Positions 1 to 15,484 of a stretch of DNA of 64,000 bases are shown piece after piece. Source of the DNA: Armatimonadota bacterium. Lineage in GTDB: Bacteria; Armatimonadota; SYMT01. Positions within the stretch are counted from its first letter, which is position 1; each line of letters opens with the position of its first letter. The stretch covers positions 800,001 to 864,000 of the forward strand of contig JAWLHY010000001.1 of NCBI GenBank assembly GCA_041690135.1. Reading direction: 5' to 3'. Below the pieces are notes generated by a model. It was not told the origin of the DNA. It searched no databases and saw nothing but the letters and a program-made list of their open reading frames with translations. The translations under genes and the position numbers were made by a program.

Positions 1-75
1 ACCCCTACTCCACCTGTTTCGGCAGGTCTCGTACCGGTTGGGAAGCGCGTGCCGCGTTTCGGCTTAAGCAAACGG

Positions 76-552
76 CTACCGCTCCGCGTTCAACTGCCGC
101 AGAACGGAGACCATTTCGATCGCCGTTACTGCCGCGTCGTATCCCTTGTTCCCCGCCTTGGTGCCGGCCCTTTCGAAGGCCTGTTCCACGTTCTCCGTGG
201 TCAGCACGCCGTTGATCACCGGCAGGCCGGTCTGGACCGCGATGTTCTGCAGCGCGGACGTCACCGACGATGCCAGGTGATCGTAATGCGAGGTCGCACC
301 GCGGATCAGAGCACCCAGGCATACGACTGCGTCGTATCGCCCGGAGCGGGCCATCTGCTGCGCCACCACCGGTATTTCAAAAGACCCCGGCACCCAGGCG
401 ACCGAAATTTCCGCCGCGTCCGCGCCGTGGCGGACAAACGCATCCTCCGCTCCCTTCAAGAGCTGCTGCGTCACCAATTCATTGAAGCGCGCGACCACAA
501 TTCCCACGCGCATCCCGGCGGCACTCATCTGCCCCTGGTATACCGTTGCCAT
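76..552 (-). CDS. ribH: 6,7-dimethyl-8-ribityllumazine synthase
   Basis: Motifs [42 protein letters not shown] and GTKAGNKG; lies directly downstream of ribBA. Confidence 0.97.
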
Positions 553-579
553 TGGCGTGTTCCCCAGATTCCCGTGCGA

Positions 580-1809
580 CTATTCCTCGGCTTTGGCGGA
601 CCGGAGATCGTCGGGCAGCAGGTGCCCCATCTTGTCCCGCTTCGTCTCGAGGTAGCGTTGATTGACTTCGTTGACCCCGCCCCGCAGGGGCACGGTCTCC
701 ACAATGGAGAGGCTGAAACCCTCCAGGCCGCCCCGCTTGCGCGGGTTGTTGGTCATCAGGCGCATCTTGCGGACCCCCAGGTCGTGGAGGATCTGCGCGC
801 CGATACCGTAGTCCCGCATATCCGGCGGGAAACCGAGCTGGCGGTTCGCCTCGACCGTATCATAGCCTTCGTCTTGCAGAGCATAAGCCCGGATCTTGTT
901 CGTGAGACCGATCCCCCGGCCCTCCTGCCCCTGCAGGTAAAGCAGGACGCCGCGGCCTTCCCGCTGAATGCGCTGCATCGCCAGGGATAGTTGCGTGCCG
1001 CAATCGCACCGGAGGGAATGGAGGATGTCGCCGGTAACGCAGCCGCTGTGCACTCGCACCAGGATCGGCTCCTCGGGGTCGATCTCTCCCAGCACCAGCG
1101 CGAGGTAGGGCGCCTTGTCGATGGTGGTCTCGTAAGCGTGGGCGGTGAACTCCCCGTGCTCGGTGGGGAGACGGCAGGTGGCCTCCCGGCGTACGTGCTT
1201 CTCCGACTTGAGGCGATGGGCAATCAGGTCCGCAATGGTCAGAATCCGCATGCCGTGAGTCGCGGCGAACCGGATCAGGGCTTCACCGCGCGCCATCTCG
1301 CCGTCTTCGGCCTTGATCTCGCAAATGACGCCCGCAGGCTCGAACCCGGCCAATCGGGCGAGGTCGACCGCCGCTTCGGTGTGACCGGCTCGCACGAGTA
1401 CGCCTCCCTCGCGAGCGCGCAGCGGACGTACGTGTCCGGGGCGCAGCAGGTCCTGGCTGCGCGTGCGCGGGTCGAGAAGGACGCGGATGGTATGCGCCTG
1501 TTCCTTGGCGGAGATGCCGGTGGTGGTGCCCTGGCGCGCATCTACGGTCACGGTGAACGCGGTCTGCAGGCGCGCCGTGCTCTCATTGACCATCAGCGGC
1601 AGGTCGAGTTGATCGAGACGGTGCCCTTCCAGGGGCACGCAGATCCACCCGCGCGCGTGCGTCTCCATGAAATTGACGGCCTCGGGAGTGATGCACTCCG
1701 CCGCCATGATCACGTCGCCTTCGTTTTCGCGGTCTTCACTGTCGACCACGATGACCATCTTGCCGGCGCGGATATCGGCAATGGCATCTTCCACACTGCA
1801 GAAAGACAT
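580..1809 (-). CDS. ribBA: Bifunctional DHBP synthase / GTP cyclohydrolase II
   Basis: RibB motifs DRENEGD, AFTVTVDA and RAGHTEA; RibA motifs RVHSGCVTGD, SLRCDCG, QEGRGIGL and MTNNP. Confidence 0.97.
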   Translation of the reverse strand: MSFCSVEDAIADIRAGKMVIVVDSEDRENEGDVIMAAECITPEAVNFMETHARGWICVPLEGHRLDQLDLPLMVNESTARLQTAFTVTVDARQGTTTGISAKEQAHTIRVLLDPRTRSQDLLRPGHVRPLRAREGGVLVRAGHTEAAVDLARLAGFEPAGVICEIKAEDGEMARGEALIRFAATHGMRILTIADLIAHRLKSEKHVRREATCRLPTEHGEFTAHAYETTIDKAPYLALVLGEIDPEEPILVRVHSGCVTGDILHSLRCDCGTQLSLAMQRIQREGRGVLLYLQGQEGRGIGLTNKIRAYALQDEGYDTVEANRQLGFPPDMRDYGIGAQILHDLGVRKMRLMTNNPRKRGGLEGFSLSIVETVPLRGGVNEVNQRYLETKRDKMGHLLPDDLRSAKAEE

Positions 1810-1968
1810 GGCTCAACCTTCCCCGGAGTGGCCCGCACCGGCATGCATGCCAACGTAAGTGCAATGGTGAACGGGCTCCTGTCCCCTTCTTTCTACGCAG
1901 GAAGGGACAGCGACGGTCTCCAAACGGTCCCGGAATGCCTTAGTGTATGCGCTGGACCCGGATTCTGG

Positions 1969-3636
1969 CTACCACCACCACGCCTGAAGAGTTTCTCGCG
2001 CGATTTGCTGTGCCGGAAGTGCCGTGTCCACGACTGTGAAGTCCGCATTCGGCGAAGGCGGTTCGTCGGGAAGCGGGTGCTCGCGGAGTTGGGTGTCGTA
2101 AACCGCGATCCCGGCATCGGAAGTAGCGTGCCCTGTCTGCGCCCGAGTGACGAGCCGCTCGCGGATCACCGCATCCGGACACTGGCAAACGATCATGCGA
2201 AGCCGTGCCCCACCTTTGGCAGCCAACTCGGCTGTGACCTCACGTTCCTTCGGGTCCAGGAACGTGGCGTCCAGGATCACCGAGTGCCCCAGCTTCAGGA
2301 GATGCGCCGCTCGGCTTCGCATCTCGCAGTAGACCGCCGCACGTTGGGCGGTGGTGTAGTGGCCGGGCTCCAGACGCCCGGTCGCCGGCACCTCCGCCAG
2401 CTCCTTTCGGAGCGTGTCGGACGAAAGCAGCACGGCGGGCATGCGACGGCACAACTCGCGGGCGAGGGCCGATTTGCCAGAGCCGGAATAGCCGACGACG
2501 ATCCACAACTCGGGAACCTTCCGGACAACCGTGTACGACCGGGCCAGGTCGAGGGCTGCACGGGCCAGATCGGCATGCAAGGTTCTCTCGTCAGGGTCGA
2601 TCTCCCCCTCCTGGGAAGCCAGGTAAGCGATCTTCCCCCGCACACAGGCGCGGTAGCAGAGGTAGAAAGGAAGGACCGCTTCCAGTTCGACGTCTTCGCT
2701 GACGTGCTGATATTCACGGACCAGGGTCGCGCGCAGATCGGTCCGGCCCGCGAGATCGAAGTCCATCGCCAGGTAGGCCAGATCGGCGGCAACGTCCTCG
2801 TAGCGAAAGCGATCGTTGAACTCGATGCAGTCGAAGATCTGGATGCCGTCCTGTATGCCTGGGGCCACGCAGATGTTCTGGAGACGCAGGTCGCCATGGC
2901 CATCGCGAATGCGTCCGGTCGCCATGCGTTTCCGAAACAGGGGGTCGCATTCGATCAGGAAGGCCTCGCTCCCGTGGCGGATAGCAGCGAGTTGTGTCTC
3001 CGGGAGCAGAGCGGGAACCGCCTTCTGGAGTACCTCGAAGTTCTCCCGCACGTTCCGGCGCAGCACCTCGGGCGCCCCGAATCCGCGAATGGTATCGTCC
3101 GTTTCCGCCTCCACATGGAAACGGGCAATCACGCGGGCGAGGCGTTCCACCTCCGGGTCCCGGAGATACGGAAGGCGGACCGGCAGCATCCACTCCTCGG
3201 GAAGGCGGCGCATGCGGACCGCCCATTCCACGACCGGACGGGGGTCTCCAGCCTCCCCGAACACCCAGCGCTCCCCCCGCTCCCCCTCCCGAACTACCGG
3301 GATCACTCCCACGTAGACTTCCGGACAGAGCCGGGCATTGAGCTCCACCTCACGGCGACAGTAGAGTTCCCGCTGTTCCAGGGTGCTGTAGTCCAGGAAG
3401 CCGAAGTTGACCGGCTTTTTGATCTTGTAGGCCCACCCCCCCGCCAGGAAGACCACCGAGCCATGCGTCTGGCGCACTTCCACCCGTTCCGTGCCCGGCG
3501 GGTAGCTTGAAGGACGGGAGAGTTCTGCAAGCAGGCGGGCGATTCGGTCACCCGAAATGTGGGATGCAATCCTGGAGCGTGGTGGACGTGACTCGGGCAT
3601 TTCACCGTCAGGGTTCCCGCTTGAACGTTCAGCCAC
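1969..3636 (-). CDS. Aminoglycoside-phosphotransferase-like kinase fused to an AAA_33/gluconate-kinase-like P-loop domain
   Basis: N-terminal QTHGS, YKIKKPV, HGDLRLQNI and DCIEFN; C-terminal GYSGSGKS, SSDTLRK and VILDATF. True start uncertain. Confidence 0.88.
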   Translation of the reverse strand: MAERSSGNPDGEMPESRPPRSRIASHISGDRIARLLAELSRPSSYPPGTERVEVRQTHGSVVFLAGGWAYKIKKPVNFGFLDYSTLEQRELYCRREVELNARLCPEVYVGVIPVVREGERGERWVFGEAGDPRPVVEWAVRMRRLPEEWMLPVRLPYLRDPEVERLARVIARFHVEAETDDTIRGFGAPEVLRRNVRENFEVLQKAVPALLPETQLAAIRHGSEAFLIECDPLFRKRMATGRIRDGHGDLRLQNICVAPGIQDGIQIFDCIEFNDRFRYEDVAADLAYLAMDFDLAGRTDLRATLVREYQHVSEDVELEAVLPFYLCYRACVRGKIAYLASQEGEIDPDERTLHADLARAALDLARSYTVVRKVPELWIVVGYSGSGKSALARELCRRMPAVLLSSDTLRKELAEVPATGRLEPGHYTTAQRAAVYCEMRSRAAHLLKLGHSVILDATFLDPKEREVTAELAAKGGARLRMIVCQCPDAVIRERLVTRAQTGHATSDAGIAVYDTQLREHPLPDEPPSPNADFTVVDTALPAQQIARETLQAWWW

Positions 3637-3687
3637 ACACGTGGAATTCGCCGTACAAGACTTGCGGATGGGGCTTTGGACGGGAAG

Positions 3688-3730
3688 AAACGCAGAGGGG
3701 GCAGCCCAGTGGGCCGCCCCCTCTGCGTTT
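3688..3730 (-). terminator. Intrinsic terminator closing the FHA-ParA-Hsp70-GrpE cluster
   Basis: Inverted repeat aaacgcagagggggc...gccccctctgcgttt, followed by tttctt on the minus strand, about 60 bp after the 3791 stop. Confidence 0.75.
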
Positions 3731-3790
3731 GGCTGGTCGGTGATTCATGGAGCTGCGCACCCGCTAAGCAGCACTTGCCGGATGCACTCC

Positions 3791-4651
3791 CTAGCCAGCG
3801 GGATTTGCCTCTCCCTGTGCCCCGCTCGATAGGTCCGCATCGGAACCGGTCGCCGGGATAACGGAAAGCGCCGCGAACACCTCCTGGTCGGCCATGGTCA
3901 GGGCCGGTTTGGCATGCTCCGGCGGGGTCTCGCTCACCATTCCCGTTTCGGCGGTTGGCAGGTCATCCGTGGACCCCACTCCCGACTTCGCGGCGGAAGC
4001 TTCCGGCACTGCCGCGGCGACGGCTGTCTCAGCTTTTGGTCCCGCAACTTCAACCGAGCCCGGTGAAGTCAGAGAACTGATAGGCGCCGAGGTCGCCATC
4101 CGTTCCCGCGGCGCCTCCAGGGGTAGGTCCAATTGCTCGACCGACTCGACCAACTCCGCCTCGCCGCGAATCACCACCTTCTCATACATCCGCCAGCAAG
4201 GAACGCGAATCCGGAGCAGGTCTCCCGGTTGGCAGCGGCCGATGATCGAATACGCCTCGTCCATTTCCGGGTCGTAGCGCTGCACTGCACCGCAGTAGGT
4301 GTCCGGGGTCAGGTGGATGCGATGCTCCAACTCATAGCGCCACACGTTCAGGATTTGCCGGCAATGGTCCGCCGTGGGAGGTTCTTTCCCGGGCGTCGTG
4401 GCATAGAGGAGCAGCCGGAGGGATGCTTCCAGCCGGTTCACGATGGACAGCACCGCTTCCTCACGGATCTGGGCTTTTACCTGCTCGGGAACATCCGCTA
4501 CGGCGCTTGCCCCCTGGTTCCAGGTATCCGCGAAGAGCGAATCTGGCGGTAGCTGGTAGTTCATGGCATCCTCCGGCCGTGGCAGCAGGGAGTGAAACAG
4601 ACGCTCCCACCATCCACGGGGTTCTTCAGCAACGGTTTGGACCTGGCTCAT
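3791..4651 (-). CDS. Divergent GrpE-like protein with N-terminal amphipathic segment and low-complexity C-terminal tail
   Basis: YDPEMDEAY...PGDLLRIRVPCWRMYEKVVIRGEAELV parallels the GrpE beta-domain pattern FDPxxHEA...PGxVxxVxxxGYxxxxRVLRPAxVxV; sits directly downstream of an Hsp70-family gene. Confidence 0.62.
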   Translation of the reverse strand: MSQVQTVAEEPRGWWERLFHSLLPRPEDAMNYQLPPDSLFADTWNQGASAVADVPEQVKAQIREEAVLSIVNRLEASLRLLLYATTPGKEPPTADHCRQILNVWRYELEHRIHLTPDTYCGAVQRYDPEMDEAYSIIGRCQPGDLLRIRVPCWRMYEKVVIRGEAELVESVEQLDLPLEAPRERMATSAPISSLTSPGSVEVAGPKAETAVAAAVPEASAAKSGVGSTDDLPTAETGMVSETPPEHAKPALTMADQEVFAALSVIPATGSDADLSSGAQGEANPAG

Positions 4652-4747
4652 CCTCGGTCTCCCTAGGGTCAGCCTCTAAATTCTTCCTTAGCACCGGCCA
4701 CGCTTGTAGATCGGATTGCACATCGGGCATCCAATCCCGTTCCGCGT

Positions 4748-6400
4748 CTAGGCTGCGGCCGTGTTCAACTTCATTTTCTGGCGCTGGACCTCCATGGCCT
4801 TGCCACGGAGGTAGCGCGTCACCAGGAGTTCGGCGGTAATCAGTTCGTGTTCATCCACCTGGCATGCCACCAGCACTTCGAACTGGTCGGGCGCCACGTT
4901 TCGAGCCCACGGGAGGGCCAGGGAGATCCGTTTCGTCAGCTTTTCCCACATCCCGCGCTCAAAGGAGGCAACCCGTTCCACCAGAGGCGAACGGCGCTGC
5001 CCGCTGAAGAACCGGATATGCACGTTGGCCGCGTTGGCATCCAGCCCCAACTGTTCCACTCGGATACGCAGCGGCGTGCGGGTTTGAAACGGGAGCTGCT
5101 GGCCGCGCGGCACCAGGAGCACCGGTTCCTCCCAGGCGCCGTTGTTGGCGGTGACGCCTCCCAGCATCCCGTTGGGGACGGCCACCCACACGGCGTGAGC
5201 GGCCCGGCGCACCGGAGCCAGTACGCCGCCGGCATTCGAGCGCACGAGCGGGACGTACGAGAGGCCGCGGGCCACACTCTGCTCCGGCTGCCGGTGGCGC
5301 CGAACCGTTCCGTTCTCCAGGGAGAGGTGCGGAAATACTTCCTTCAGCGCCCGGTCGACGAAGTACCAGCGAGAGTGACCACCGGTAAGGATCAGGTGCG
5401 TAATCTGGCGGGGGGCGAGGTTCCCCTCTTCCAGAGCGCCCCGCATCAACACGACAAACTGGTTGATGTACTCCGCGGCAAACATCTCGAACTCACCGCG
5501 GGTCAGGCGCACCCGGCGGGTTTCGTCATCCACCAACCAGAGCGACTCGTGCTCGTCCGCGCCCTCGCGGAGGCGGTTGGAGAACTCCTCTTTGAAACGG
5601 CGCACGTCCCGCAGCAGGGGTTGGCGATTGCGCTTTACGAACTGGGGATCCCAGTCGCGGGTCACGTAATCCAGCATCAACTGGTCGAGATCCCGCCCCC
5701 CGTAGGAGCGCCGGCCGTTGCCCCATGCCGGCACGGAGCCGGCGGGGTCCACGGGAATTGAGACCGGCCGCTGGTCCGGCGACATGGCGAGCTGGAGGAA
5801 TGCGAAGTCGGTAGTGCCCCCGCCCATGTCGATCATCAGGATCCGGCTGCCCGGCTTGGGGTGGAAGCCATCCCGGTCGTCGCACAGGTGGCTGTAGAGC
5901 GCCGCCATCGACTCTTCCTCGAGCCGCACGTTGGGGAAACCCGCTTCCATCGCCGCGCGCCGAGTTTCCTCACGCTGGTCGGCACTCCACTGGACGGGGT
6001 GCCCGACGATGGTTTCGAAGGCGACGTTCCCGTCTTTCTTGTCGAGCGGCACAACTTCCGCGGTGCGCTGCCGAAGGTGGGCCAGGAACTGCCGGGCCAG
6101 GAGGAAGGCTTCGCGACCATTCTCCGCGTGACCCAGTCGCAGCTTGAAGCCGCTGCGGGTGTACTCCGGATAAAAGGGCGCCTTCTCCTCGGCCAGTTCG
6201 CCGAACTGCGGCAACTGCTCGCCGCCGTCCCCGAGAAACACCACGGTGGGAAGCGTGGAGCGGTGGCTGAACGTGATGGCTTCGGGGCGCTGGATTGGGT
6301 CGGGGTCTACGTCACCGTTGCCACGGTCGTAGTAAGTGGCATAGGTGACGCAGCTATTGCTCGTCCCAAAATCGATTCCGATAACGTAAACCGTCTTCAT
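4748..6400 (-). CDS. Atypical Hsp70-family protein (about 550 aa; not canonical DnaK)
   Basis: Actin/Hsp70 motifs IGIDFGTSNS, EESMAAL, DMGGGTTD, YGGRDLD, LTGGHSR and PEQSVARG. ATG at 6400 chosen because it sits just before the first motif. Confidence 0.9.
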   Translation of the reverse strand: MKTVYVIGIDFGTSNSCVTYATYYDRGNGDVDPDPIQRPEAITFSHRSTLPTVVFLGDGGEQLPQFGELAEEKAPFYPEYTRSGFKLRLGHAENGREAFLLARQFLAHLRQRTAEVVPLDKKDGNVAFETIVGHPVQWSADQREETRRAAMEAGFPNVRLEEESMAALYSHLCDDRDGFHPKPGSRILMIDMGGGTTDFAFLQLAMSPDQRPVSIPVDPAGSVPAWGNGRRSYGGRDLDQLMLDYVTRDWDPQFVKRNRQPLLRDVRRFKEEFSNRLREGADEHESLWLVDDETRRVRLTRGEFEMFAAEYINQFVVLMRGALEEGNLAPRQITHLILTGGHSRWYFVDRALKEVFPHLSLENGTVRRHRQPEQSVARGLSYVPLVRSNAGGVLAPVRRAAHAVWVAVPNGMLGGVTANNGAWEEPVLLVPRGQQLPFQTRTPLRIRVEQLGLDANAANVHIRFFSGQRRSPLVERVASFERGMWEKLTKRISLALPWARNVAPDQFEVLVACQVDEHELITAELLVTRYLRGKAMEVQRQKMKLNTAAA

Positions 6401-6518
6401 GGATGACACATCTAACTGCAAGCTCTCGCCCGGTCTGCCCGGCGAGCTGATGTGGCGTGGCACGTTCGATAGGCCCGTGACACGTTATCGGCAGGGGTTC
6501 ATCGATTCTGGATACCAA

Positions 6519-7376
6519 TCATGCGGTCTGGGCCGCATTGATCAGGACCTGGGTCAATTGCCGGTAGGCCCAGGCGACCGGGGAGTCCGGGCGATAGAGG
6601 ACAATGGGGCGGTCCAACAGCAACCCTTCCCCCACCGTGGCGTCGCGAGGAATCGAAACCGGGAACAACGCCTGGCCCAGGCTGCGGCGGATGTGGGCTT
6701 CCAACTGTGCCTGGCGGGGATCCTGCTCCTCCACCATCGTCAGCAGCAGTCCCAGAAGACGCGCGGTGGCGCCGTCGGCCCGGGCATCCCGGAGTTGGCC
6801 CAGAATGCCGCCCAACGTGCGATAGGCCAGGGGGTGGCACTGGAAGACGACGACCACCTCATCGACCACCTGGCACAGCCGGCGCGTCATGTCCGCCACC
6901 GAGGGCCGCGTGTCCACGATGATGTACTCATAGTGGCCCGGTACTCGCTTGCCTAGCTCCGACAGCGCCCGGTGCAAGGCGTTGAGATCCACGGGCCGCC
7001 GGTCCTCCGCATACGGTAGGAGATCGAGGTTCGTCGCCACCTCGGGAATCACGAGATCGGACAGGTCCCACTGTTCGATGCCGAAAAGGCCCGGGTGTCC
7101 GGGGGCCACGGACGTGCCGAAACAGGCGGCCACGCTGCCGATCGGGTCCGTGTCCACGATCAACACGCGGTTTCCGGACTGGCCGAGACAGGCCGCCACG
7201 TTCACCGCCGACGCCGTTTTCCCGACGCCACCCTTCTGGCTCGCGAACATGATCCGCCGGACCGCGGCGCGCCGCGCCTCGTCGTGCAGTTCCGCAACAC
7301 CGGATTCCGCGCTTGCCCCGCCCCCTGGGCTGGCAGCGGTAGACCGGGCGCCACCAAACGGGTTGCTTTCCATCAT
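6519..7376 (-). CDS. ParA/Soj-family ATPase, soluble
   Basis: Deviant Walker A QKGGVGKT, plus VDTDP, YIIVDTRP, LLLTM, SIPRD and AWAYRQL. Confidence 0.92.
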   Translation of the reverse strand: MMESNPFGGARSTAASPGGGASAESGVAELHDEARRAAVRRIMFASQKGGVGKTASAVNVAACLGQSGNRVLIVDTDPIGSVAACFGTSVAPGHPGLFGIEQWDLSDLVIPEVATNLDLLPYAEDRRPVDLNALHRALSELGKRVPGHYEYIIVDTRPSVADMTRRLCQVVDEVVVVFQCHPLAYRTLGGILGQLRDARADGATARLLGLLLTMVEEQDPRQAQLEAHIRRSLGQALFPVSIPRDATVGEGLLLDRPIVLYRPDSPVAWAYRQLTQVLINAAQTA

Positions 7377-7444
7377 TTCTTGCTTTGACCTGTTGCGGGG
7401 AACGGCCAGGAGCCGTCCCGGGACTTAGATTTCCTGGGGCTCAT

Positions 7445-8422
7445 CTATCGGTGCGCCGCGCTTCCGGATTTGGCGGCGATCACGCGGCTCTTACCATTCT
7501 TGGCCGGGCCGTCCGAAGCTCGGCCCCCGCGCCCTGCCGTCATCCAGTAGCCGATGCCGGCGGCCAACAACACCAGAACGGCAATGGCGGCTACCGCCCA
7601 GTTGAGTTTGAAACCACCGGACTGGGGCATCGGCATCTGCTGCGAGCCGGCCTGGACCGGCGCTGCCGGCACGGAAGCCCCCATCGGCTGCGCCCGGCGA
7701 GCGGGCGGCGCCCACGCGGACGCCCCCGCGGAATTGCCGCCGTACATTCCATCGAGCTGGAGCCCACGGACCACGGCATCGCCCGCCGCCTGGTAGGCGG
7801 CTCGGCTCTGCTCGGAGGGTTCGGTGCGGCGCTCGACTTTCTGTTCCGCGCGGTGGGCCAGCCCCGAGTCTGTGGGGATCGGCGGGTTGAGTAGTCCATC
7901 CGGCCGGCGCGAGCGGAGTTCCAGCATCAACGTCCGCTGGGTGGGGTCCTGCTCGTCGAACATGGTGGGAAGCACGCCGATCAAGTGGATCTGCGGGCTG
8001 AGATCCCGCACGTTATCCAGCGCTGCTTCCGCTCCGTCCAGTGTCTTCAGGCTGACCGGCTCCACCGGAATCACCATCAACACCGCCGTCGAAAGCTGAA
8101 TCCATCCCCGGGCGAGCGGGTCATCCAGAGAGGGGGTGTCGACCACAGCCACGTCGAACAACCCTTCCAGTTCCTTGACCTTGGAAGGAAGTTCCCGCAG
8201 CGGGAGGACGCTGCTGCAGAGGTATCGCAAGCGCGGGTTCCGGGTCTGCTGGACGGAGCCGGTAGTCTCCTCGAGGCCGAGAATGAGACTCGCGCCCCGC
8301 TGGCGGTCCGCATCCACCAGGACCACGCGGACACCGCGCCGGGCCAGGTCTTCCGCGAGCATGACCGCGGAAGTCGTCTTTCCGGCCCCGCCTTTGTGAC
8401 TGATAATGGCAAGCGTTTTCAT
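7445..8422 (-). CDS. ParA-family ATPase with C-terminal transmembrane helix
   Basis: HKGGAGKTT, VDAD and VVDTP; Pro/Ala/Gln linker followed by hydrophobic WAVAAIAVLVLLAAGIGYW and a basic tail. Confidence 0.88.
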   Translation of the reverse strand: MKTLAIISHKGGAGKTTSAVMLAEDLARRGVRVVLVDADRQRGASLILGLEETTGSVQQTRNPRLRYLCSSVLPLRELPSKVKELEGLFDVAVVDTPSLDDPLARGWIQLSTAVLMVIPVEPVSLKTLDGAEAALDNVRDLSPQIHLIGVLPTMFDEQDPTQRTLMLELRSRRPDGLLNPPIPTDSGLAHRAEQKVERRTEPSEQSRAAYQAAGDAVVRGLQLDGMYGGNSAGASAWAPPARRAQPMGASVPAAPVQAGSQQMPMPQSGGFKLNWAVAAIAVLVLLAAGIGYWMTAGRGGRASDGPAKNGKSRVIAAKSGSAAHR

Positions 8423-8437
8423 GTGCAGCTCAAGTCT

Positions 8438-9196
8438 CTACCGGGGTGCCGTGCAGAGGGGATCGGCCGGCTCGTCCGGCTCCTCGGGATTTGGTTGTCC
8501 CAGCGCGTCCTGGAGCATTTCACCCAGTACAACATCCTCGGCTGTCAGGTGGTGGCTCCCCGGCGCTTCCAGGACCCGAATAATACTCGTCTGACCCATC
8601 TGGATCCGGTCGCCGTTCCGCAGCACGACCTCTTCTCCTGGCGTCAGGACGCGGCCGTTGAAGCGGGTGCCGGTTTCGCTCTGGAGATCCCGCAGTACGA
8701 ACCTCCCGCCCACTTTACCGATCCAGGCGTGGGCGGCGGCAACACCGGGGTCCATGAACAGGTCGATCTCGGGATGGATTCCCCGAGAAAAATCACGGCG
8801 CCCCACCAGGGCCTCATCCCGCACCAGCCAGGGGAACTTCCGGCGGGCCGAGCTGACCTCGATCTTCAGGTTGTGAATGCGGTGCGTAGCCTGAGCGTCG
8901 GCCTCATCGACCTCAATGGGTCGATCGGCATGCTGCTCGATGACGTTCAACACCTCTTGTTCAGATGGTGCCGTCCAGGCGCTAGATTCCTCCCTCGCCA
9001 GGGGGCGATCGGCAAGATTCGTAGTTTTCGGCTCCTGGGCGGTTTCCTCGCTGGCGTGGACGTTCGCCATCTCGTCTACGTCGAAATCGGGCCGGGCCCG
9101 CAGGTAGGCCCATTCATCCTCGGCGGCCGGGGAAGTGGGCGCCTGCGCGCCTTGCTTCTCCGCGTCATCACTTTTGCCGAACAGCCAGCGAAGCAT
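8438..9196 (-). CDS. FHA-domain protein with degenerate phosphothreonine site
   Basis: VGR...PEIDL...GVAAAH...LRDLQSETGTRFNG...LRNGDRIQMG gives the FHA fold pattern, with the SxxH Ser and STNG Asn replaced. Confidence 0.85.
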   Translation of the reverse strand: MLRWLFGKSDDAEKQGAQAPTSPAAEDEWAYLRARPDFDVDEMANVHASEETAQEPKTTNLADRPLAREESSAWTAPSEQEVLNVIEQHADRPIEVDEADAQATHRIHNLKIEVSSARRKFPWLVRDEALVGRRDFSRGIHPEIDLFMDPGVAAAHAWIGKVGGRFVLRDLQSETGTRFNGRVLTPGEEVVLRNGDRIQMGQTSIIRVLEAPGSHHLTAEDVVLGEMLQDALGQPNPEEPDEPADPLCTAPR

Positions 9197-9318
9197 TCAG
9201 GGATCCATCTCCCAGGCGACCGCTCCGACCCATGGACGATCACCAATCGATAGTAGTTATTCTGGCGCCCTGGCCTCCAGGCTGTAGGTGCCCGATAGAG
9301 AATGGCACCCTCAGGCAC

Positions 9319-10176
9319 CTAGAGGATGCCGTCCTCGCGCCCCAGGTCCAACGCCAGGTCCAGCACGTCTTTTCCGCTTCCGTCGGCCAGGAGAGGCGGA
9401 GCCGGCGCACGGGGATCCATCCGCGTGGTGACGAACGAGCCGCCGAACAGTTCATCCAGGCTTTCCGCGATGACCCGTTCTTCCTTCTCATTCTGGGAAG
9501 GCTGACGGACTACCCCCACCGGCACCACGTGGATGACCGACACATCTCCCAGTTGAATCACGTCTCCAGCACGCAGCTCCACCGTCTCACCGGAGGCGAG
9601 CCACCGCCCATTGTGGAGCGTCCCGTTCGTACTGCCGAGGTCCTGCAGGTGATACACCCCCGCCTTCAACCAGATCCGCGCATGGCGCCGCGATACGGCA
9701 TCATCCTGGCTGAGGTCCACTTCCGGATGACAGCCGCTCTCCAGATCCAGGCGACCAATGAGAAGCGCCTCGTCCACGGTACGCAGCATGCGCCGGACCC
9801 CCGAACGAACGTCGAGCGCGAGGGGCTGACGAACCGGTGCCGGAGGACCCAGGTTGGCCTCGCCCGGCTGCCCCGATGCATCCTCATGAGGCGCGTCCAA
9901 CAGTTCGTTGAGGAATTGCGGCTGGAGTTCTTCAAGGTCGCGCGAGAGGCGGGCCTCCAGTTCGGGGTCCGGTAAGAGCGCTCCGTCGCCTAGGGAGGCC
10001 TCTCCGGCACGATTCCCTACGGTACTCCGGGAATGAACGGCGGCCATCTCTTCCGAATCGAAGTCCGGGCGGGCCCGCAGGTAGGCCCAATCGTCGTCGC
10101 CTTCCGGACGCGGCGCGGCAGGGGGTGCCGAGCTTTCTTCCGGATCTGCTTTTTTCAGAAATCCCCAACGGAGCAT
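9319..10176 (-). CDS. FHA-domain protein, canonical
   Basis: IGR...PEVDL...VSRRHARI...QDLGSTNGTLHNG...LRAGDVIQLG. Confidence 0.92.
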   Translation of the reverse strand: MLRWGFLKKADPEESSAPPAAPRPEGDDDWAYLRARPDFDSEEMAAVHSRSTVGNRAGEASLGDGALLPDPELEARLSRDLEELQPQFLNELLDAPHEDASGQPGEANLGPPAPVRQPLALDVRSGVRRMLRTVDEALLIGRLDLESGCHPEVDLSQDDAVSRRHARIWLKAGVYHLQDLGSTNGTLHNGRWLASGETVELRAGDVIQLGDVSVIHVVPVGVVRQPSQNEKEERVIAESLDELFGGSFVTTRMDPRAPAPPLLADGSGKDVLDLALDLGREDGIL

Positions 10177-10530
10177 GACAGTCCATTCCGTCGCGGTCGG
10201 CGCGATGAGGGAGGATCGGGGCGGACAGAAGGAATACAGCTACAATTGTGGCACGTCGGGCATCGCTCTGGAGAGGCCTCGCGCGTCTCCGGCCGTTCCC
10301 GTCCCCGCCAGCCTGGACGATCCCCGTATGATCGGCATTCCAGGTACTACCGCAGGTAAGCGACAAAGCCTATCCTCGGACGCTAGCCCAGCTTCTCCTC
10401 CGGCAAGGACCCTAGCCGATACTCCGGCTAATACTCCGGAAGGATGATAGCAGACTAACTGGGAGAACGGAAGTGAGTCGATCCGCAGGCTCCTCGCTCC
10501 CCTGTCAAGTAACAGAGATCTAACACAACG

Positions 10531-11819: not shown

Positions 11820-13547
11820 TTACTTCTTCTTGGGCGCCGGCTTCTTGACTGCCGGCTTCTTGACTGCCGGCTTGCGGGCGACGGGCTTCTTGGCCGGCGC
11901 CTTGGTGGCCGTGGGCTTCTTTACCGGCGCCTTGGGGTTGGTGGAGGGGGTCTTGGGCTGGGTGGAATCGCCACCGGCCGCGGCCGGCTCGGGATCGCGG
12001 TTCCAGGTGAGCGGCGGGAGTTGCGTCTCCTCCCCGGCTTCGACGATCACTTCCACCTCGTTGTTTTGCCAGTGCCCGATTCCGGTCAGCCGAAGATCCT
12101 GGCGCGGCTGGAAGTTCCGGAGCACCCGGTAAGTCCCCGGGCGCACGTTCGGCAGCACCACCTTGCCGGTCGGATCGACCGGAAGATCGATCCAACGCAT
12201 TCCGGCGGTTTCGGCTCCGGATTTGGGAACGAGACCCAAAGCGAGGGCGCCTTCGGGCGGAGCTTCACCATTGATCTTGATGGCCGAGATGAGCGTCCCC
12301 CCTCCCGGCGCGTAGAAGGCCCGGGGGGCGTTAGCGCTGTTCCGGCCGGGAAGCAGCACGTTCCGGCGCGGGATGAAGGCGCCTTCCGGCGGAAGCGGCA
12401 CGTCCTTCATCCGGAACGAGAAGGCGCGGCTGGCCTCTCCGTACTCCGAAACGTTGAGCCGGACCGAGCGGATGGGTTCCTTTACGGGGGCATACTGGGC
12501 CGTGATGTCGTAGGCCAGACCTCCCCCCACCTGACGAGTGCTCTTCTGATGGGTCGTGGGCGTGTGGAAGCCGCCCGCGGCGTCCACCAGCAGCGGCATG
12601 GGGAAGGCCTCCATCCCCTGTACCCGGATCGCTGAGTGCAGGGGAACTTGCACCCGGAAGGTCACGCTGGGCTGTGCGGCGTTATCGGCGGCGGGAACCG
12701 TGACCTTCTGCACTTCCACCACCATTCCGCCCGCCTCCTTCTTCGCGTTCTCCGGCGTCACCGGGAGCGCCACTTCAAAAGGATGGGTGCGCGCGGATTT
12801 ATAGGTGAGCAGATCTCCCTCGATCCAGACGAGCCGGGTCGCCTTCGGATGAACGCCGGACAGGCTTAGCGAGCAGGCCCATTCATCCGGCAGTAGCGTG
12901 CCGGCGAGCGTGGTGCTCGAGGAACTCACCAGGGCGCGCTCGCCGGTGAGGAGGTTGCCCTGGTCGTCCATGGCCACCACATTCTCGATCCCGGCAATCC
13001 GGTCGCTGTCCAGCTCACCCAGGTCGGCCTGGAGTTCCAGGGTCAGCGTCTGGTCGTCCTGGGAGATAGGTCCCCCCGCGAAATCAAGCGCTCGGGTGTT
13101 GCGCACGGAAACACGGCGAACAAAAAGCGAGATCCCCGCGTTCTCCACCAGGCCCACTTTCCTGGCAGGGGAAGCGGAAAGGGCCGACCCGGAGGGGAAG
13201 AGGAGGAACCGCCCCCACTGGCGCGACACCTGGAGCCGGTAGCGGGACTTCAAATCGCGGAGCGCTGTTGCGAGCGTAACGCCGCTCCATTTGAAACTGG
13301 ACTTTTCTTCCAGTATCCGGAGACTGGAGGGGAGCGCGACACCGGCAGGGCGGCGGGGCATCTGGATCTCCACCGGTACCCCCGAAGCTTTCGACAGCTG
13401 GGCGATCGCCTCCTCGGCCGTGGCATTCTGTACGTTCAGCGTTAGCTTGGGGTTGTCGGCCGGCGCAGGCGCCTGGATAACCACCCCCGCCACCAACATC
13501 CATCCCAGCGTCGACCGCTTCAGGTAATTTCGCACACACACCTCCAT
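11820..13547 (-). CDS. Secreted hypothetical protein: STN-like N-terminus, carboxypeptidase-regulatory-like C-domain, Lys/Pro/Ala tail
   Basis: Signal peptide then DNPKLTLNVQNATAEEAIAQLSKASG; LPNVRPGTYRV; PAVKK repeats. Start may instead be GTG 13535 after GGAGG. Confidence 0.7.
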   Translation of the reverse strand: MEVCVRNYLKRSTLGWMLVAGVVIQAPAPADNPKLTLNVQNATAEEAIAQLSKASGVPVEIQMPRRPAGVALPSSLRILEEKSSFKWSGVTLATALRDLKSRYRLQVSRQWGRFLLFPSGSALSASPARKVGLVENAGISLFVRRVSVRNTRALDFAGGPISQDDQTLTLELQADLGELDSDRIAGIENVVAMDDQGNLLTGERALVSSSSTTLAGTLLPDEWACSLSLSGVHPKATRLVWIEGDLLTYKSARTHPFEVALPVTPENAKKEAGGMVVEVQKVTVPAADNAAQPSVTFRVQVPLHSAIRVQGMEAFPMPLLVDAAGGFHTPTTHQKSTRQVGGGLAYDITAQYAPVKEPIRSVRLNVSEYGEASRAFSFRMKDVPLPPEGAFIPRRNVLLPGRNSANAPRAFYAPGGGTLISAIKINGEAPPEGALALGLVPKSGAETAGMRWIDLPVDPTGKVVLPNVRPGTYRVLRNFQPRQDLRLTGIGHWQNNEVEVIVEAGEETQLPPLTWNRDPEPAAAGGDSTQPKTPSTNPKAPVKKPTATKAPAKKPVARKPAVKKPAVKKPAPKKK

Positions 13548-13583: not shown

Positions 13584-15209
13584 TTACTTCTTTCGAGCGG
13601 GAGCCGGCTTCGACCCGGTCCCGCCCGCCGCCGGGGCGGGGCCGGCGCTCCAGCGGAGCACCGGCAGTGCCTGTTCCTTGCCGGCGACCACCTGCACTCG
13701 CACTTCGTAGCCCTGCCAGTGCCCCCCCGGACGGACAGGCGTGTCGCCCCGGTACTTGCGCAACACCCGGTAAGTACCGGGACGAATCTCCTCAAGACGC
13801 ACCTTTCCGTCCGGCCCGATCATCGCTTCGGTCCAGCGCACGGGCCCCCATCCCGTGGCGGTGCGGGCGGCGAGGCCGAGCTGGACGACACCCTGGGGGA
13901 TCGGCTTGTCCGCCACGGCCACGCTCCCCACCAGGGTGCCGCCGCCCTTCTGGTAGAAGGGATGCTCCGCCTCCGGCGGGGCCGCGGGACGCGGTGCGGG
14001 GGCGGGACCTCCCGCGCGCGGGACCACGAGGCTCGCCTCCGGCAGAGGGATATCGGACATCCGGAAGGAGAACAACTTCACCGGCTCCGACTTCTCCACG
14101 ATCTCCCACACCAGCTTCACCGGCTTCTCCGCCATGCCGGGAAAGATCCAGGTGGTATCGCTCACTTGCCATTGCCCATCGCTGGATGAACCGCCGCCGC
14201 GGAAAGTGGAGCCCGGGTAGGACTTGCCGGACTCTCCCACCGCAATAGGTGGCAGCCCCCAACCGCCGGCACGGGAACTGAAGCGGGCGCCCACCGGGCT
14301 GAACACGCGGATGCGGACACTGGGACCGAAGTCCTGAGCCTGGTGAGCGAAGCGCGGTCCGGGTAGATCCGCCTCGTCCCCTTCTTCCTCTGCTTTAGGA
14401 ATCACCTGGAAGCGAGAGGCCACGATCAACATGGGGCCTACTTCCCGGCGAAAGCTCTTGCCCGGCAGGGGAAGGGGGATTTCGGCCCGGTGCTGCTTCA
14501 CGTGCTTGTAGACCATCAGGTCGCCTTCCACCGATACCAGCTTCCTGGCTTTCGAGTGCGGGGAACCGAGATGCAACCCGCCGACCCACTCATCCGGAAA
14601 CTGGTTGGAGTATCCCCCGTAATAGCCGCCGTTTTGATTGGGAGCCTGCAGCACATTTCCCTGGTCGTCGCGCGCCAGCACGTTGTCGAGCCCGGCCACG
14701 GTGTCTCCGTCGCCGTTGGGAATCTCCGCCGCCACCTGGAGATTCAGGCTGCTGTTGCTGTAGCTGGCCCCCGGACCCGCGAAGTTGACGTGACGGTTCT
14801 CGTTGACGCTGACTGAGCGCACGCTGAGCTGCACGCCGCTCTTCTGGACGACCCCCACCGGCTTGCCCGCCGGCGCCCCGCCGGTGAGATAGAGCATGTA
14901 CCGGCCACCGTTGCGGTTGGGCTGGAGATTGAAGCGCGCACAGAGATCCCGCAGGGCGCGGCCGAGGGTGGCATTCGACCAATCGAAGGTCACACGCTCG
15001 GAGGCGAGGTGACCGGCCGAGAGATCGAGGGGAATGCCCGAGGCCTCGCCCAGTTTCTTCAAAGCCTCGCTCAGGGGGGCGTCCTGGATCTTCAGGGCGA
15101 TCTTCGGGTTATCCGCGCGAGCCGGGCCGGAACCGGCTGCAAAAAGGGCCGCGGAAAGTATCGCCCCGGAGGCCAGCGGATAAGGAATACGGGAAGCGGA
15201 GCGGGTCAT
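13584..15209 (-). CDS. Secreted hypothetical protein, tandem paralogue of 11820-13547
   Basis: Shares ADNPK, DDQGN, PDEW, EGDL, FSFRM.D.PLP, FY..GGGTL and RPGTYRVLR with its neighbour; GGAG precedes ATG 15209. Confidence 0.75.
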   Translation of the reverse strand: MTRSASRIPYPLASGAILSAALFAAGSGPARADNPKIALKIQDAPLSEALKKLGEASGIPLDLSAGHLASERVTFDWSNATLGRALRDLCARFNLQPNRNGGRYMLYLTGGAPAGKPVGVVQKSGVQLSVRSVSVNENRHVNFAGPGASYSNSSLNLQVAAEIPNGDGDTVAGLDNVLARDDQGNVLQAPNQNGGYYGGYSNQFPDEWVGGLHLGSPHSKARKLVSVEGDLMVYKHVKQHRAEIPLPLPGKSFRREVGPMLIVASRFQVIPKAEEEGDEADLPGPRFAHQAQDFGPSVRIRVFSPVGARFSSRAGGWGLPPIAVGESGKSYPGSTFRGGGSSSDGQWQVSDTTWIFPGMAEKPVKLVWEIVEKSEPVKLFSFRMSDIPLPEASLVVPRAGGPAPAPRPAAPPEAEHPFYQKGGGTLVGSVAVADKPIPQGVVQLGLAARTATGWGPVRWTEAMIGPDGKVRLEEIRPGTYRVLRKYRGDTPVRPGGHWQGYEVRVQVVAGKEQALPVLRWSAGPAPAAGGTGSKPAPARKK

Positions 15210-15484
15210 TACGGATCTCCCAAGCCCGCCGGAGCGAGGCATCGCCTCGGCACATGGGGACGTGCGGCCCGGAGAGACGGAACTCCGGGGGGCTCGACGA
15301 CGGTTCGTGCGGAGGACACCACTGGTTGGACGCAGGTGGCTTAAGCTATGTTACCGGGAAGCAGCGGCCAACGCAGTAAGCGGCCGGCCTCGTTCACACC
15401 TGCAGGATACACTGTACCGGGTCCATTGGGCAACGAAGCCGCCCCGGCGCGACCGGCTCACCCTGGAGATTCTCGGGAGAAAAG

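Follow-up and report, generated by a model that had tools for sequence, protein, structure and literature searches.

We analyzed a 64,000-nucleotide stretch of DNA from an Armatimonadota bacterium (GenBank assembly GCA_041690135.1; hereafter the window), which is positions 800001-864000 of contig C1 in a source genome of 9.1 Mb, 25 contigs, and 97% completeness. Window positions 1-10200 hold seven co-directional minus-strand genes, two of which lie side by side and encode ATPases of the ParA/MinD family, here called ParA-1 and ParA-2. Genes of this kind commonly carry the label "chromosome partitioning protein," which is probably wrong. We favor, with moderate confidence, the reading that the two proteins are a conserved heterotypic ParA/MinD-family pair (an SH-type ParA-1 and an SQ-type ParA-2) that serves as a membrane-tethered switch and not as the chromosome partition ATPase Soj. 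An earlier note on this DNA gave the positions and motif strings of both proteins correctly, and both genes are on the minus strand. The features of the pair are as follows.

7445..8422, minus strand: ParA-1, 325 amino acids (aa), SH-type ParA/MinD-family ATPase with SHKGGAGKT; Pfam CbiA 3.9e-17, AAA_31 3.1e-15
7937..7966, minus strand: ParA-1 residues 153-162, TMFDEQDPTQ, with Q158 at the Soj R189 site (alignment to Thermus thermophilus Soj, TtSoj)
7859..7879, minus strand: ParA-1 residues 182-188, IPTDSGL, with T184 and G187 at the Soj R215 and R218 sites (TtSoj alignment)
7529..7597, minus strand: ParA-1 residues 276-298, predicted transmembrane (TM) helix (AVAAIAVLVLLAAGIGYWM...), by Kyte-Doolittle score
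6519..7376, minus strand: ParA-2, 285 aa, SQ-type ParA/MinD-family ATPase with SQKGGVGKT; Pfam AAA_31 5.5e-23
6711..6740, minus strand: ParA-2 residues 213-222, TMVEEQDPRQ, with Q218 at the Soj R189 site (TtSoj alignment)
6633..6653, minus strand: ParA-2 residues 242-248, IPRDATV, with R244 and T247 at the Soj R215 and R218 sites (TtSoj alignment)

ParA-1 consists of an ATPase domain (residues ~1-225), an Ala/Pro/Gln-rich linker, the TM helix, and a basic 27-aa tail. The N-terminal ~35 residues of ParA-2 are poorly conserved, and for this reason its true start may be further downstream than the called one. The ParA-2 ortholog set comprised 111 clusters at 55% identity or more, with the next matches at 36% or less, and the ParA-1 set comprised about 95 clusters. 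With one genome per species (GTDB), only 4 ParA-1 ortholog records were found, and identity fell from at least 54% to at most 35%. Close homologs of both proteins are labeled Armatimonadota at their source, and by our own count 38 source contigs are apparently common to the two homolog tables. ParA-1 and ParA-2 are 27 to 30% identical to each other.

Residues at the DNA-binding sites of Soj

TtSoj (1wcv) was the best solved relative of both ParA-2 (E value of 3.9e-31) and ParA-1 (4e-15). According to the accessible part of PMC6393308, residues R189, K201, R215, and R218 of Bacillus subtilis Soj (BsSoj) equal R182, R194, R208, and R211 of TtSoj and form a basic DNA patch. We read the patch positions off gap-free HMMER alignments to TtSoj, in which R182/R194/R208/R211 correspond to Q218/R230/R244/T247 of ParA-2 and to Q158/R170/T184/G187 of ParA-1, and we took column counts over 105 ParA-2 and 93 ParA-1 orthologs, with 39 canonical relatives for comparison. 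The R189 equivalent is basic in 6/105 ParA-2 and 4/93 ParA-1 orthologs and the R218 equivalent is basic in 1/105 and 2/93, which bears out the claim of the earlier note that both proteins have replaced the DNA-binding arginines; both positions are basic in all 39 canonical relatives. The R215 equivalent is basic in 12/105 and 2/93 orthologs, respectively, and the K201 equivalent is basic in 101/105 (R230) and 42/93 (R170). The conserved patch residues left are thus one in ParA-2 (R230) and none in ParA-1, where R170 is the best. The canonical relatives have a mean of 3.92 of the 4 patch residues basic, with strings of the type TMFDARLNLSQQV / IPRNVRLSEA.

Acidic residues are found beside the lost arginines. 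The residue after the lost Arg is Asp in ParA-2 (D219, 103/105) and Asp or Glu in ParA-1 (D/E159, 79/93), and a second Asp occupies the last position of IPxD (ParA-2 D245, 104/105; ParA-1 D185, 93/93), where canonical proteins have N, S, or T. No acidic residue occurs at these two neighboring sites in the 39 canonical relatives. The helix 8-10 region carries a net charge of -3.3 in ParA-2 and -2.0 in ParA-1, compared to +1.0 in the canonical relatives. Judged from these alignments, both proteins have conserved acidic residues in place of the basic patch with which Soj binds the nucleoid.

A Gln lies three residues beyond the first acidic position (ParA-2 Q222, 100/105; ParA-1 Q/H162, 92/93), and the conserved pattern common to the two proteins is D-x-x-D-x-x-Q. 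The earlier note had singled out a shared EQDP motif. Both strings of this genome do contain it, but it is not a conserved feature, being found in only 3/111 ParA-2 and 3/97 ParA-1 orthologs; its Pro is conserved in ParA-2 (93/105) and not in ParA-1 (13/93). On these counts, the literal EQDP in the two proteins is a local coincidence. We also considered gene conversion as its source and rejected it, as DNA identity around the motif is 43/78 bases and only the GAGCAGGAYCCC core is alike.

The KGGxGKT signature is intact in ParA-1 and ParA-2, and its Lys, which the earlier note had reported as present, is near-invariant in both ortholog sets. ParA-2 residues K48, K53, D75, D77, and D155 are invariant (39 orthologs), ParA-1 residues K10, K15, D37, D39, and D95 are invariant or at least 90% conserved (34 orthologs), and the ParA-1 Walker A Lys is present in 89/89 aligned orthologs. 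With the ATP-binding, hydrolysis, and dimer-sandwich residues all kept, both proteins look catalytically competent and dimer competent.

A predicted membrane anchor on ParA-1

After its Ala/Pro/Gln-rich linker, ParA-1 has a hydrophobic 19-mer at residues 276-294 with a Kyte-Doolittle mean of 2.25. We defined a TM-like segment in ParA-1 orthologs as a Kyte-Doolittle 19-residue score of at least 1.6 after residue 200; 87/93 orthologs have one, and the six exceptions are the short ones. The 27-residue tail beyond the helix (residues 299-325, window positions 7445-7528) is strongly basic (R, R, K, K, R, K, H, R). ParA-2 has no C-terminal extension or membrane anchor and ends with the core fold. 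The TM helix of ParA-1 would offer a matrix other than the nucleoid. The earlier note proposed that these ATPases dimerize and do not use the nucleoid. This stands at the sequence level, where the ATPase residues are kept, the patch is lost, Asp residues are gained, and ParA-1 has a TM helix, but it is unproven, and ParA-1 R163 and R191, discussed below, count against it.

Soj, Min, and ParB in the genome and the phylum

Besides ParA-1 and ParA-2, the genome has no gene of the ParA/MinD type. The remaining CbiA/AAA_31 matches are Mrp/NUBPL, ArsA, BioD-like, CobQ, SRP54/FtsY, and long tyrosine kinase-like proteins, and no canonical Soj was found in this 97% complete genome. Neither ParA reaches any NCBIfam curated cut-off (NF041546, 66 bits versus 180); for the MinD family TIGR01968, the two ParAs score 31.6 and 37.9 bits versus a cut-off of 212.9. 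No MinD scored above cut-off in the genome and MinC (MinC_C) was not found; no MinE search was made. FtsZ was found.

Three genes of the genome encode ParB_N plus HTH_ParB proteins (C12:39078-39899, minus strand; C2:837623-838834; and C16:36120-37202), and none of the three has a ParA neighbor. In the ParB with a ParB_C domain (a 274-aa frame on C12), the ParB_N domain begins within ~9 residues of the start. A basic N-terminal ParB peptide is the contact for ParA. None of the three ParBs has such a peptide of the LGRGL type, and a ParB of another Armatimonadota family (locus L016) does have one.

Elsewhere in the phylum, soj adjoins parB in 5/6 loci of other families, and a Soj match (E value of 1e-40 or better) is present in 123/151 genomes. 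In the source family, 2/7 genomes have a Soj match, both of them weak (36 to 39% identity), and ParA-2 orthologs are present in 5/6 other genomes of the family, the sixth being 69% complete.

Related pairs in Planctomycetota

At 50% clustering, the ParA-2 family is one representative and one fragment. The next proteins are 35 to 41% identical and have an N-terminal ParA domain with a long C-terminal extension. Among the 147 representatives nearest ParA-2, 102 have no basic residue at either Arg site, and 48/102 have a TM-like C-terminal segment, as do 0/31 of the representatives with both arginines. One ParA-2 relative is named ParA family protein of Telmatocola sphagniphila. Some relatives of the anchored SQ-type proteins (P0305, P0343, P0313, and P0333) have the N-terminal ParA domain on proteins of 995 to 1734 aa, and one of these is named "WD40 repeat protein/BcsQ" at its source.

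Locus L059, from a Planctomycetota metagenome-assembled genome (MAG), encodes an SHKGGTGRT protein of 259 aa and, after it, a 636-aa SHKGGVGKT protein in which a Pro-rich linker and TM helices are present. A phylum-wide Planctomycetota search found the anchored SQ-type protein in only 2/101 genomes at an E value of 1e-20 or better; in the order of the L059 MAG, it is present in 23/121 genomes. We examined 25 Planctomycetota loci over ±1.5 kb with a Walker A pattern, and 10/25 hold a tandem pair in which the short SH...GRT gene is always directly upstream of the SQ-type gene. All 10 SH-type proteins of these pairs are short, and 10/12 complete SQ-type ORFs (open reading frames) have a TM score of at least 1.9. 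The anchor is on the SQ-type partner in Planctomycetota and on ParA-1, the SH-type partner, here. The Planctomycetota SH-type proteins have KGGTGRT, in which Arg replaces the P-loop Lys. The residue before KGG is H in 89/89 aligned ParA-1 orthologs and in all 10 upstream Planctomycetota proteins, and it is Q in 103/105 ParA-2 orthologs and 19/20 downstream Planctomycetota proteins.

At 5/10 Planctomycetota pair loci, the gene immediately upstream, in the same orientation, encodes a protein kinase. At L157:690-9797 (also at L154, L156, and L162), the ParA pair comes after genes for a Fer2-kinase, a heme oxygenase, a 2Fe-2S ferredoxin, a V4R protein, a phycobilisome-like protein, a second V4R protein, and a Ser/Thr kinase. 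ORF clusters from five loci suggest that this gene run recurs, and it could be a bilin- or redox-sensing signaling operon.

We built a quick tree of 87 rows with Shimodaira-Hasegawa-like approximate likelihood ratio test (SH-aLRT) support and a careful tree of 54 rows with ultrafast bootstrap (UFBoot)/SH-aLRT support. ParA-1 grouped with the Planctomycetota SH-type proteins (96 in the quick tree and 97/93 in the careful tree), and ParA-2 grouped with the anchored type and P0112 (98 and 100/99). Canonical Soj, that of Armatimonadota included, formed a clade separate from both ParAs in both trees. A clade of all four groups (ParA-1, ParA-2, and the two Planctomycetota types) was not recovered in the 54-row tree. 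The trees, the gene order, and the SH/SQ signature before KGG together favor orthology of the Armatimonadota and Planctomycetota pairs, which is not proven. Recent tandem duplication was rejected on the maximum-likelihood (ML) trees, which separate the two genes, though the approximately unbiased (AU) test leaves the possibility (p 0.375). The common origin that the earlier note drew from the shared EQDP did not follow, since the tetrapeptide is peculiar to this genome and the same trees and test apply. As the AU test does not reject a ParA-1/ParA-2 clade, the ancient-pair reading is favored only.

The conserved gene cluster

The other five genes of the co-directional run are the following.

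9319..10176, minus strand: FHA1, 285 aa, FHA domain at residues 140-210; Pfam FHA 1.3e-15, 58 bits versus a cut-off of 20.7
8438..9196, minus strand: FHA2, 252 aa, FHA1 paralog; Pfam FHA 1.2e-10, 42.1 bits versus 20.7; phmmer to FHA1 3.9e-32
4748..6463, minus strand: Hsp70-like protein; Pfam HSP70 6e-17; likely start at the Met at 6400 (MKTVYVIGIDFG)
3791..4651, minus strand: GrpE-like protein, 286 aa, with the public call starting 29 aa later; by Foldseek
1969..3636, minus strand: 555-aa fusion of an APH-type phosphotransferase region with a kinase-like AAA_33 P-loop domain (Zeta-toxin-like match 7.4e-9), directly downstream of the cluster

The order ParA-1, ParA-2, Hsp70-like, GrpE-like is kept in 4/4 related loci. 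By tblastn, among 80 loci with ParA-1-like genes, Hsp70-like and GrpE-like genes lie beside them only in the 4 family loci. The cluster is flanked by riboflavin genes and a 3-keto-disaccharide hydrolase gene; the hydrolase flank is kept in 4/4 related loci, divergent and upstream of the cluster, and the APH/AAA_33 gene is not retained beside the cluster in these four loci.

An FHA gene precedes the cluster in 2/4 related loci. At the third, a 188-aa homolog keeps the N- and C-terminal motifs of the FHA proteins without an FHA domain, and at the fourth no FHA-protein homolog was recognized. The FHA1 motifs are MLRWGFLKK and DDWAYLRARPDFD at the N terminus and DVLDLALDLG at the C terminus, and they are common to FHA2 and to the homologs in 3 related genomes. 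Over their first 60 residues, the FHA proteins read MLRWGFLKK ... DEWAYLRARPDFD. Written for all of these proteins, the motifs outside the FHA domain are M(L)RWGFxKK, DEWAFLRxRPDFDxxEMA, and the C-terminal DLLDLALExGExAGL (window positions 8438-10176; L042:6280-7146, L043:8052-8921, and L044:8416-8979). The basic peptide at the N terminus might serve as the contact for ParA.

The Hsp70-like protein matches Pfam HSP70 at 61.5 bits (cut-off, 20.6) over residues 149-378 only, and its nucleotide-binding domain (NBD) matches that of DnaK (1dkg_D, 2e-12). Its HscA/DnaK NCBIfam scores are 56 to 64 bits versus cut-offs of 620 to 822. The AlphaFold2 (AF2) model is of low confidence (predicted local distance difference test score [pLDDT] of 60.6); it aligns with lid-less or two-domain DnaK (2v7y, 8e-18) and predicts an NBD and a beta-rich C-terminal domain without a helical lid. 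The protein is 68 to 78% identical across the 4 related genomes. An Hsp70-like paralog lies at C3:936033-937667 (phmmer 4.9e-195, 56% identity), with no ParA or GrpE-like gene beside it. The genes beyond it encode a 336-aa protein without a family match, an FHA protein of 550 aa (on a convergent gene), and a Ser/Thr kinase of 981 aa that contains WD40 repeats. We rejected the 336-aa protein as a GrpE-like partner of this paralog because it shows no similarity to the GrpE-like protein of the cluster (best E value, 4.3).

The 286-aa protein has no Pfam, NCBIfam, or PADLOC match, and its 78 ortholog clusters are all named "hypothetical." Its AF2 model (mean pLDDT of 67, core of 83 to 96) has two long helices, a small beta domain, and an acidic disordered tail. 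The Foldseek top 10 are all GrpE, with a best E value of only 4.6e-3, and VIA-align against GrpE 1dkg_B gave a Z score of 7.0 over 130 residues, but with a root mean square deviation (rmsd) of 10 Å. An Atlas search returned unnamed clusters only, plus a sub-threshold GrpE lead at 0.87. From the predicted fold, we call this protein GrpE-like with moderate confidence.

Comparison with known systems

ParA-1 and ParA-2 resemble Soj (T. thermophilus 1wcv/2bek and the Helicobacter pylori Soj-DNA complex 6iuc) in their deviant Walker A motif with the signature Lys, DxD switch, Walker B motif, and core length. They differ in that the four-residue patch is down to 1 (ParA-2) or 0-1 (ParA-1) residues with two conserved Asp residues added, there is no parB neighbor, the trees separate them from the Soj clade, and a TM helix is predicted in ParA-1. 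MinD and FlhG use the membrane, not the nucleoid, and have no Soj arginines. In MinD, a C-terminal amphipathic helix depends on ATP dimerization, whereas here one protein has a TM helix and its partner is unanchored; moreover, the TIGR01968 scores given above are far from MinD, and MinC was not found in the genome. The cluster also recalls DnaK-GrpE, since the Hsp70-like NBD matches that of DnaK and the GrpE-like protein has a predicted two-helix plus beta-domain topology. However, scores are far under the family cut-offs, the GrpE-like protein has no GrpE Pfam match, the helical lid is missing from the prediction, and the cluster contains no J-protein gene.

The October 2026 preprint 10.64898/2026.10.19.760177, in its accessible text, gives two categories of ParA/MinD proteins, membrane users and nucleoid users. 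Its PCTM proteins are like ParA-1 in that a TM segment (type II, single TM) comes after a ParA domain in the cytoplasm, and they are proposed to be membrane-linked switches; PCTM, in that text, belongs to ConB2, in which Arg replaces the Walker A Lys, and has an effector gene upstream, while ParA-1 has KGGAGKT and FHA genes upstream. GTPase-centered conflict systems, as described in the accessible part of PMC7159879, likewise combine one or two paralogous P-loop NTPases with HSP70 and GrpE, and sometimes with kinase or FHA parts. Those systems use TRAFAC GTPases with variable effectors and occur sporadically, whereas the proteins here are SIMIBI ParA-like, without an effector, in a cluster inherited with its flanks within one family.

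Non-DNA-binding, membrane-type ParA/MinD proteins and TM-anchored ParAs are already known, the latter from the accessible text of the October 2026 preprint. In the literature searched, we found no conserved pair of unlike ParAs in which either partner can be the anchored one, no link of such a pair to FHA, kinase, Hsp70, or GrpE-like genes, nothing on ParA-like proteins of Armatimonadetes, and no titles on a tandem ParA pair or a ParA-Hsp70-GrpE cluster. The main text of the preprint, so far as accessible, does not contain "two ParA," "heterodimer," "paralogous," "GrpE," or "Armatimonad"; its supplements may place these clades.

Proposed mechanism and alternatives

ParA/MinD ATPases are the main spatial organizers of bacterial cells. 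To our knowledge, the well-studied ones are all homodimers, which act on the nucleoid or, via an amphipathic helix, on the membrane. Here, ATP would bring soluble ParA-2 onto membrane-tethered ParA-1, as a heterodimer or a higher hetero-complex, so that a MinD-like "ATP = on the membrane" cycle would be divided between two polypeptides. Ser/Thr phospho-signaling might set or read the switch, through the FHA proteins here and an upstream kinase in Planctomycetota; we infer this link from the two FHA genes upstream of the pair and the kinase at half of the Planctomycetota pair loci. In this Armatimonadota family, the switch might also be coupled to a dedicated lid-less Hsp70 and GrpE-like exchange factor, as client or effector.

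The strongest argument for a heterotypic partnership is that the anchor is on the SH-type protein here and on the SQ-type protein in Planctomycetota, with an unanchored partner that has no other matrix determinant. Heterotypic NTPase pairs show asymmetry such as an Arg-for-Lys P-loop in one partner, and the Arg-for-Lys P-loop of the Planctomycetota SH-type proteins adds asymmetry that fits such a pair. The sub-cut-off NCBIfam scores, the separate clades, and the missing parB neighbor indicate that the proteins are not Soj. If the heterotypic pair is real, with one of its subunits truly anchored in the membrane, it would amount to a third ParA/MinD design. The lineage has neither Soj nor Min, and the pair occurs among relatives of bacteria in which division is little understood; the pair may hence be a sign of a way of positioning or signaling that has yet to be studied.

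Several observations weigh against this heterotypic, membrane-tethered pair. Close to the lost arginines, ParA-1 has others that are conserved (R163, 80/93; R172, 62/93; R173, 72/93; and R191, 90/93), R163 and R191 sit one helical turn from the lost patch, and the four could be a shifted basic patch. The earlier note had raised compensating basic residues as a counterargument; in ParA-1 such residues do lie nearby. An N-in/C-out anchor would not be expected to end in a tail as strongly basic as the one beyond the TM helix of ParA-1; perhaps the hydrophobic segment forms a hairpin, or the tail has a binding partner at the surface of the membrane. The heterodimer itself is something we infer from gene order and the swapped anchor alone. 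In Planctomycetota, the SQ-type gene stands alone within ±1.5 kb at 10/25 loci and 5/25 gave no ORF by the Walker A pattern, no Hsp70 or GrpE-like genes were found beside the pair at L059, and the kinase adjacency may be partly background in this kinase-rich phylum. The AU test does not reject ParA-1 plus ParA-2 as one clade (delta log-likelihood of 6.3, p 0.375). The GrpE call comes from weak fold matches (E value of 4.6e-3; Z score of 7.0, rmsd of 10 Å) to a model with a pLDDT of 67.

A rather unlikely alternative is that one operon encodes two independent homodimeric ATPases, ParA-1 anchored in the membrane and ParA-2 soluble with its own partner, which form no heterodimer; ParA-1 might then still touch DNA or acidic lipids through R163/R191. 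Every residue of the symmetric homodimer is kept in both proteins and neither site is degenerate, the two are only 27 to 30% identical, ParA-1 retains the conserved arginines near the lost patch, and the solved ParA/MinD proteins among the structural matches are homodimers. However, ParA-2, lacking a DNA patch, an amphipathic tail, and a TM segment, would have no matrix by itself, the fact that Planctomycetota have the opposite partner anchored is easily explained only if one anchor serves both, and the KGGTGRT of the SH-type protein there fits a heterotypic pair. On the other side of the heterotypic reading lies a stronger form of it, which we advance only tentatively: a split MinD-like machine, in which an obligate, ATP-dependent pair of a soluble and a TM-anchored ParA would run a membrane on/off cycle and be a spatial organizer, gated by Ser/Thr phosphorylation via FHA proteins or kinases, in lineages that have lost Soj and Min; the pair would be ancient and common to Armatimonadota and Planctomycetota, with the anchor on either subunit. 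Its role might be that of a division-site or polarity marker or the chaperone-assisted assembly of a membrane complex.

We think it improbable that the cluster is a biological-conflict module, immune or abortive, with the ParA pair as its sensor switch, in the manner of the NTPase-HSP70-GrpE or PCTM systems. The accessible part of PMC7159879 does have conflict systems in which HSP70 is combined with one or two paralogous GTPases, as well as an HSP70-GrpE theme and kinase-linked variants. The accessible text of preprint 10.64898/2026.10.19.760177 has a receptor-like ParA with a C-terminal TM domain (PCTM), makes Arg for the Walker A Lys, which the Planctomycetota SH-type proteins share, a hallmark of the ConB2 immune clade, and treats V4R, a domain encoded upstream at some Planctomycetota loci, in conflict contexts. 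Yet Pfam and NCBIfam revealed no nuclease, TIR, caspase, SLATT, or similar effector domain in the cluster, and PADLOC gave only weak N-terminal P-loop matches (PDC-M28B, 3e-6 and 9e-8; PprDinG, 4e-4) and nothing for the other five cluster proteins. The cluster is single copy and strongly conserved (68 to 78% for the Hsp70-like protein across genera), its housekeeping-like flanks are kept, and ParA-2 orthologs recur in 5/6 other family genomes, the sixth being incomplete. ParA-1 has Lys, not Arg, in its Walker A motif, and the same preprint text has nearly all immune ParAs keeping the DNA-binding interface that these two have lost. Less probable still is that ParA-2 is a diverged chromosomal ParA, split from parB, that segregates the origin with an orphan ParB on a membrane track provided by ParA-1. 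It is the nearest thing to Soj in the genome (TtSoj, 3.9e-31), ParB is retained, and canonical Soj was not found in the source genome or in 4/6 other family genomes. Against this, the trees put ParA-2 with the anchored Planctomycetota clade (100/99) and outside the Soj clade, it adjoins no parB, the canonical ParB (C12) has no basic N-terminal peptide, and Soj is also absent from other families of the phylum that lack the pair (f8, 0/3; f17, 0/5; and f19, 0/3).

Other genes of the window and genome

Just past the hydrolase gene, two adjoining minus-strand genes at 11820-13547 and 13584-15242 encode proteins of 575 and 552 aa that have no Pfam match; by eye, the two are similar, and both have Lys/Pro/Ala-rich C-terminal tails. 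At C6:103836-105065, the genome encodes another SIMIBI ATPase, unrelated to the pair; it is of the ArsA/Get3 type and has an ArsA_HSP20 domain at its C terminus (Pfam 2.4e-71 and 1.2e-14).

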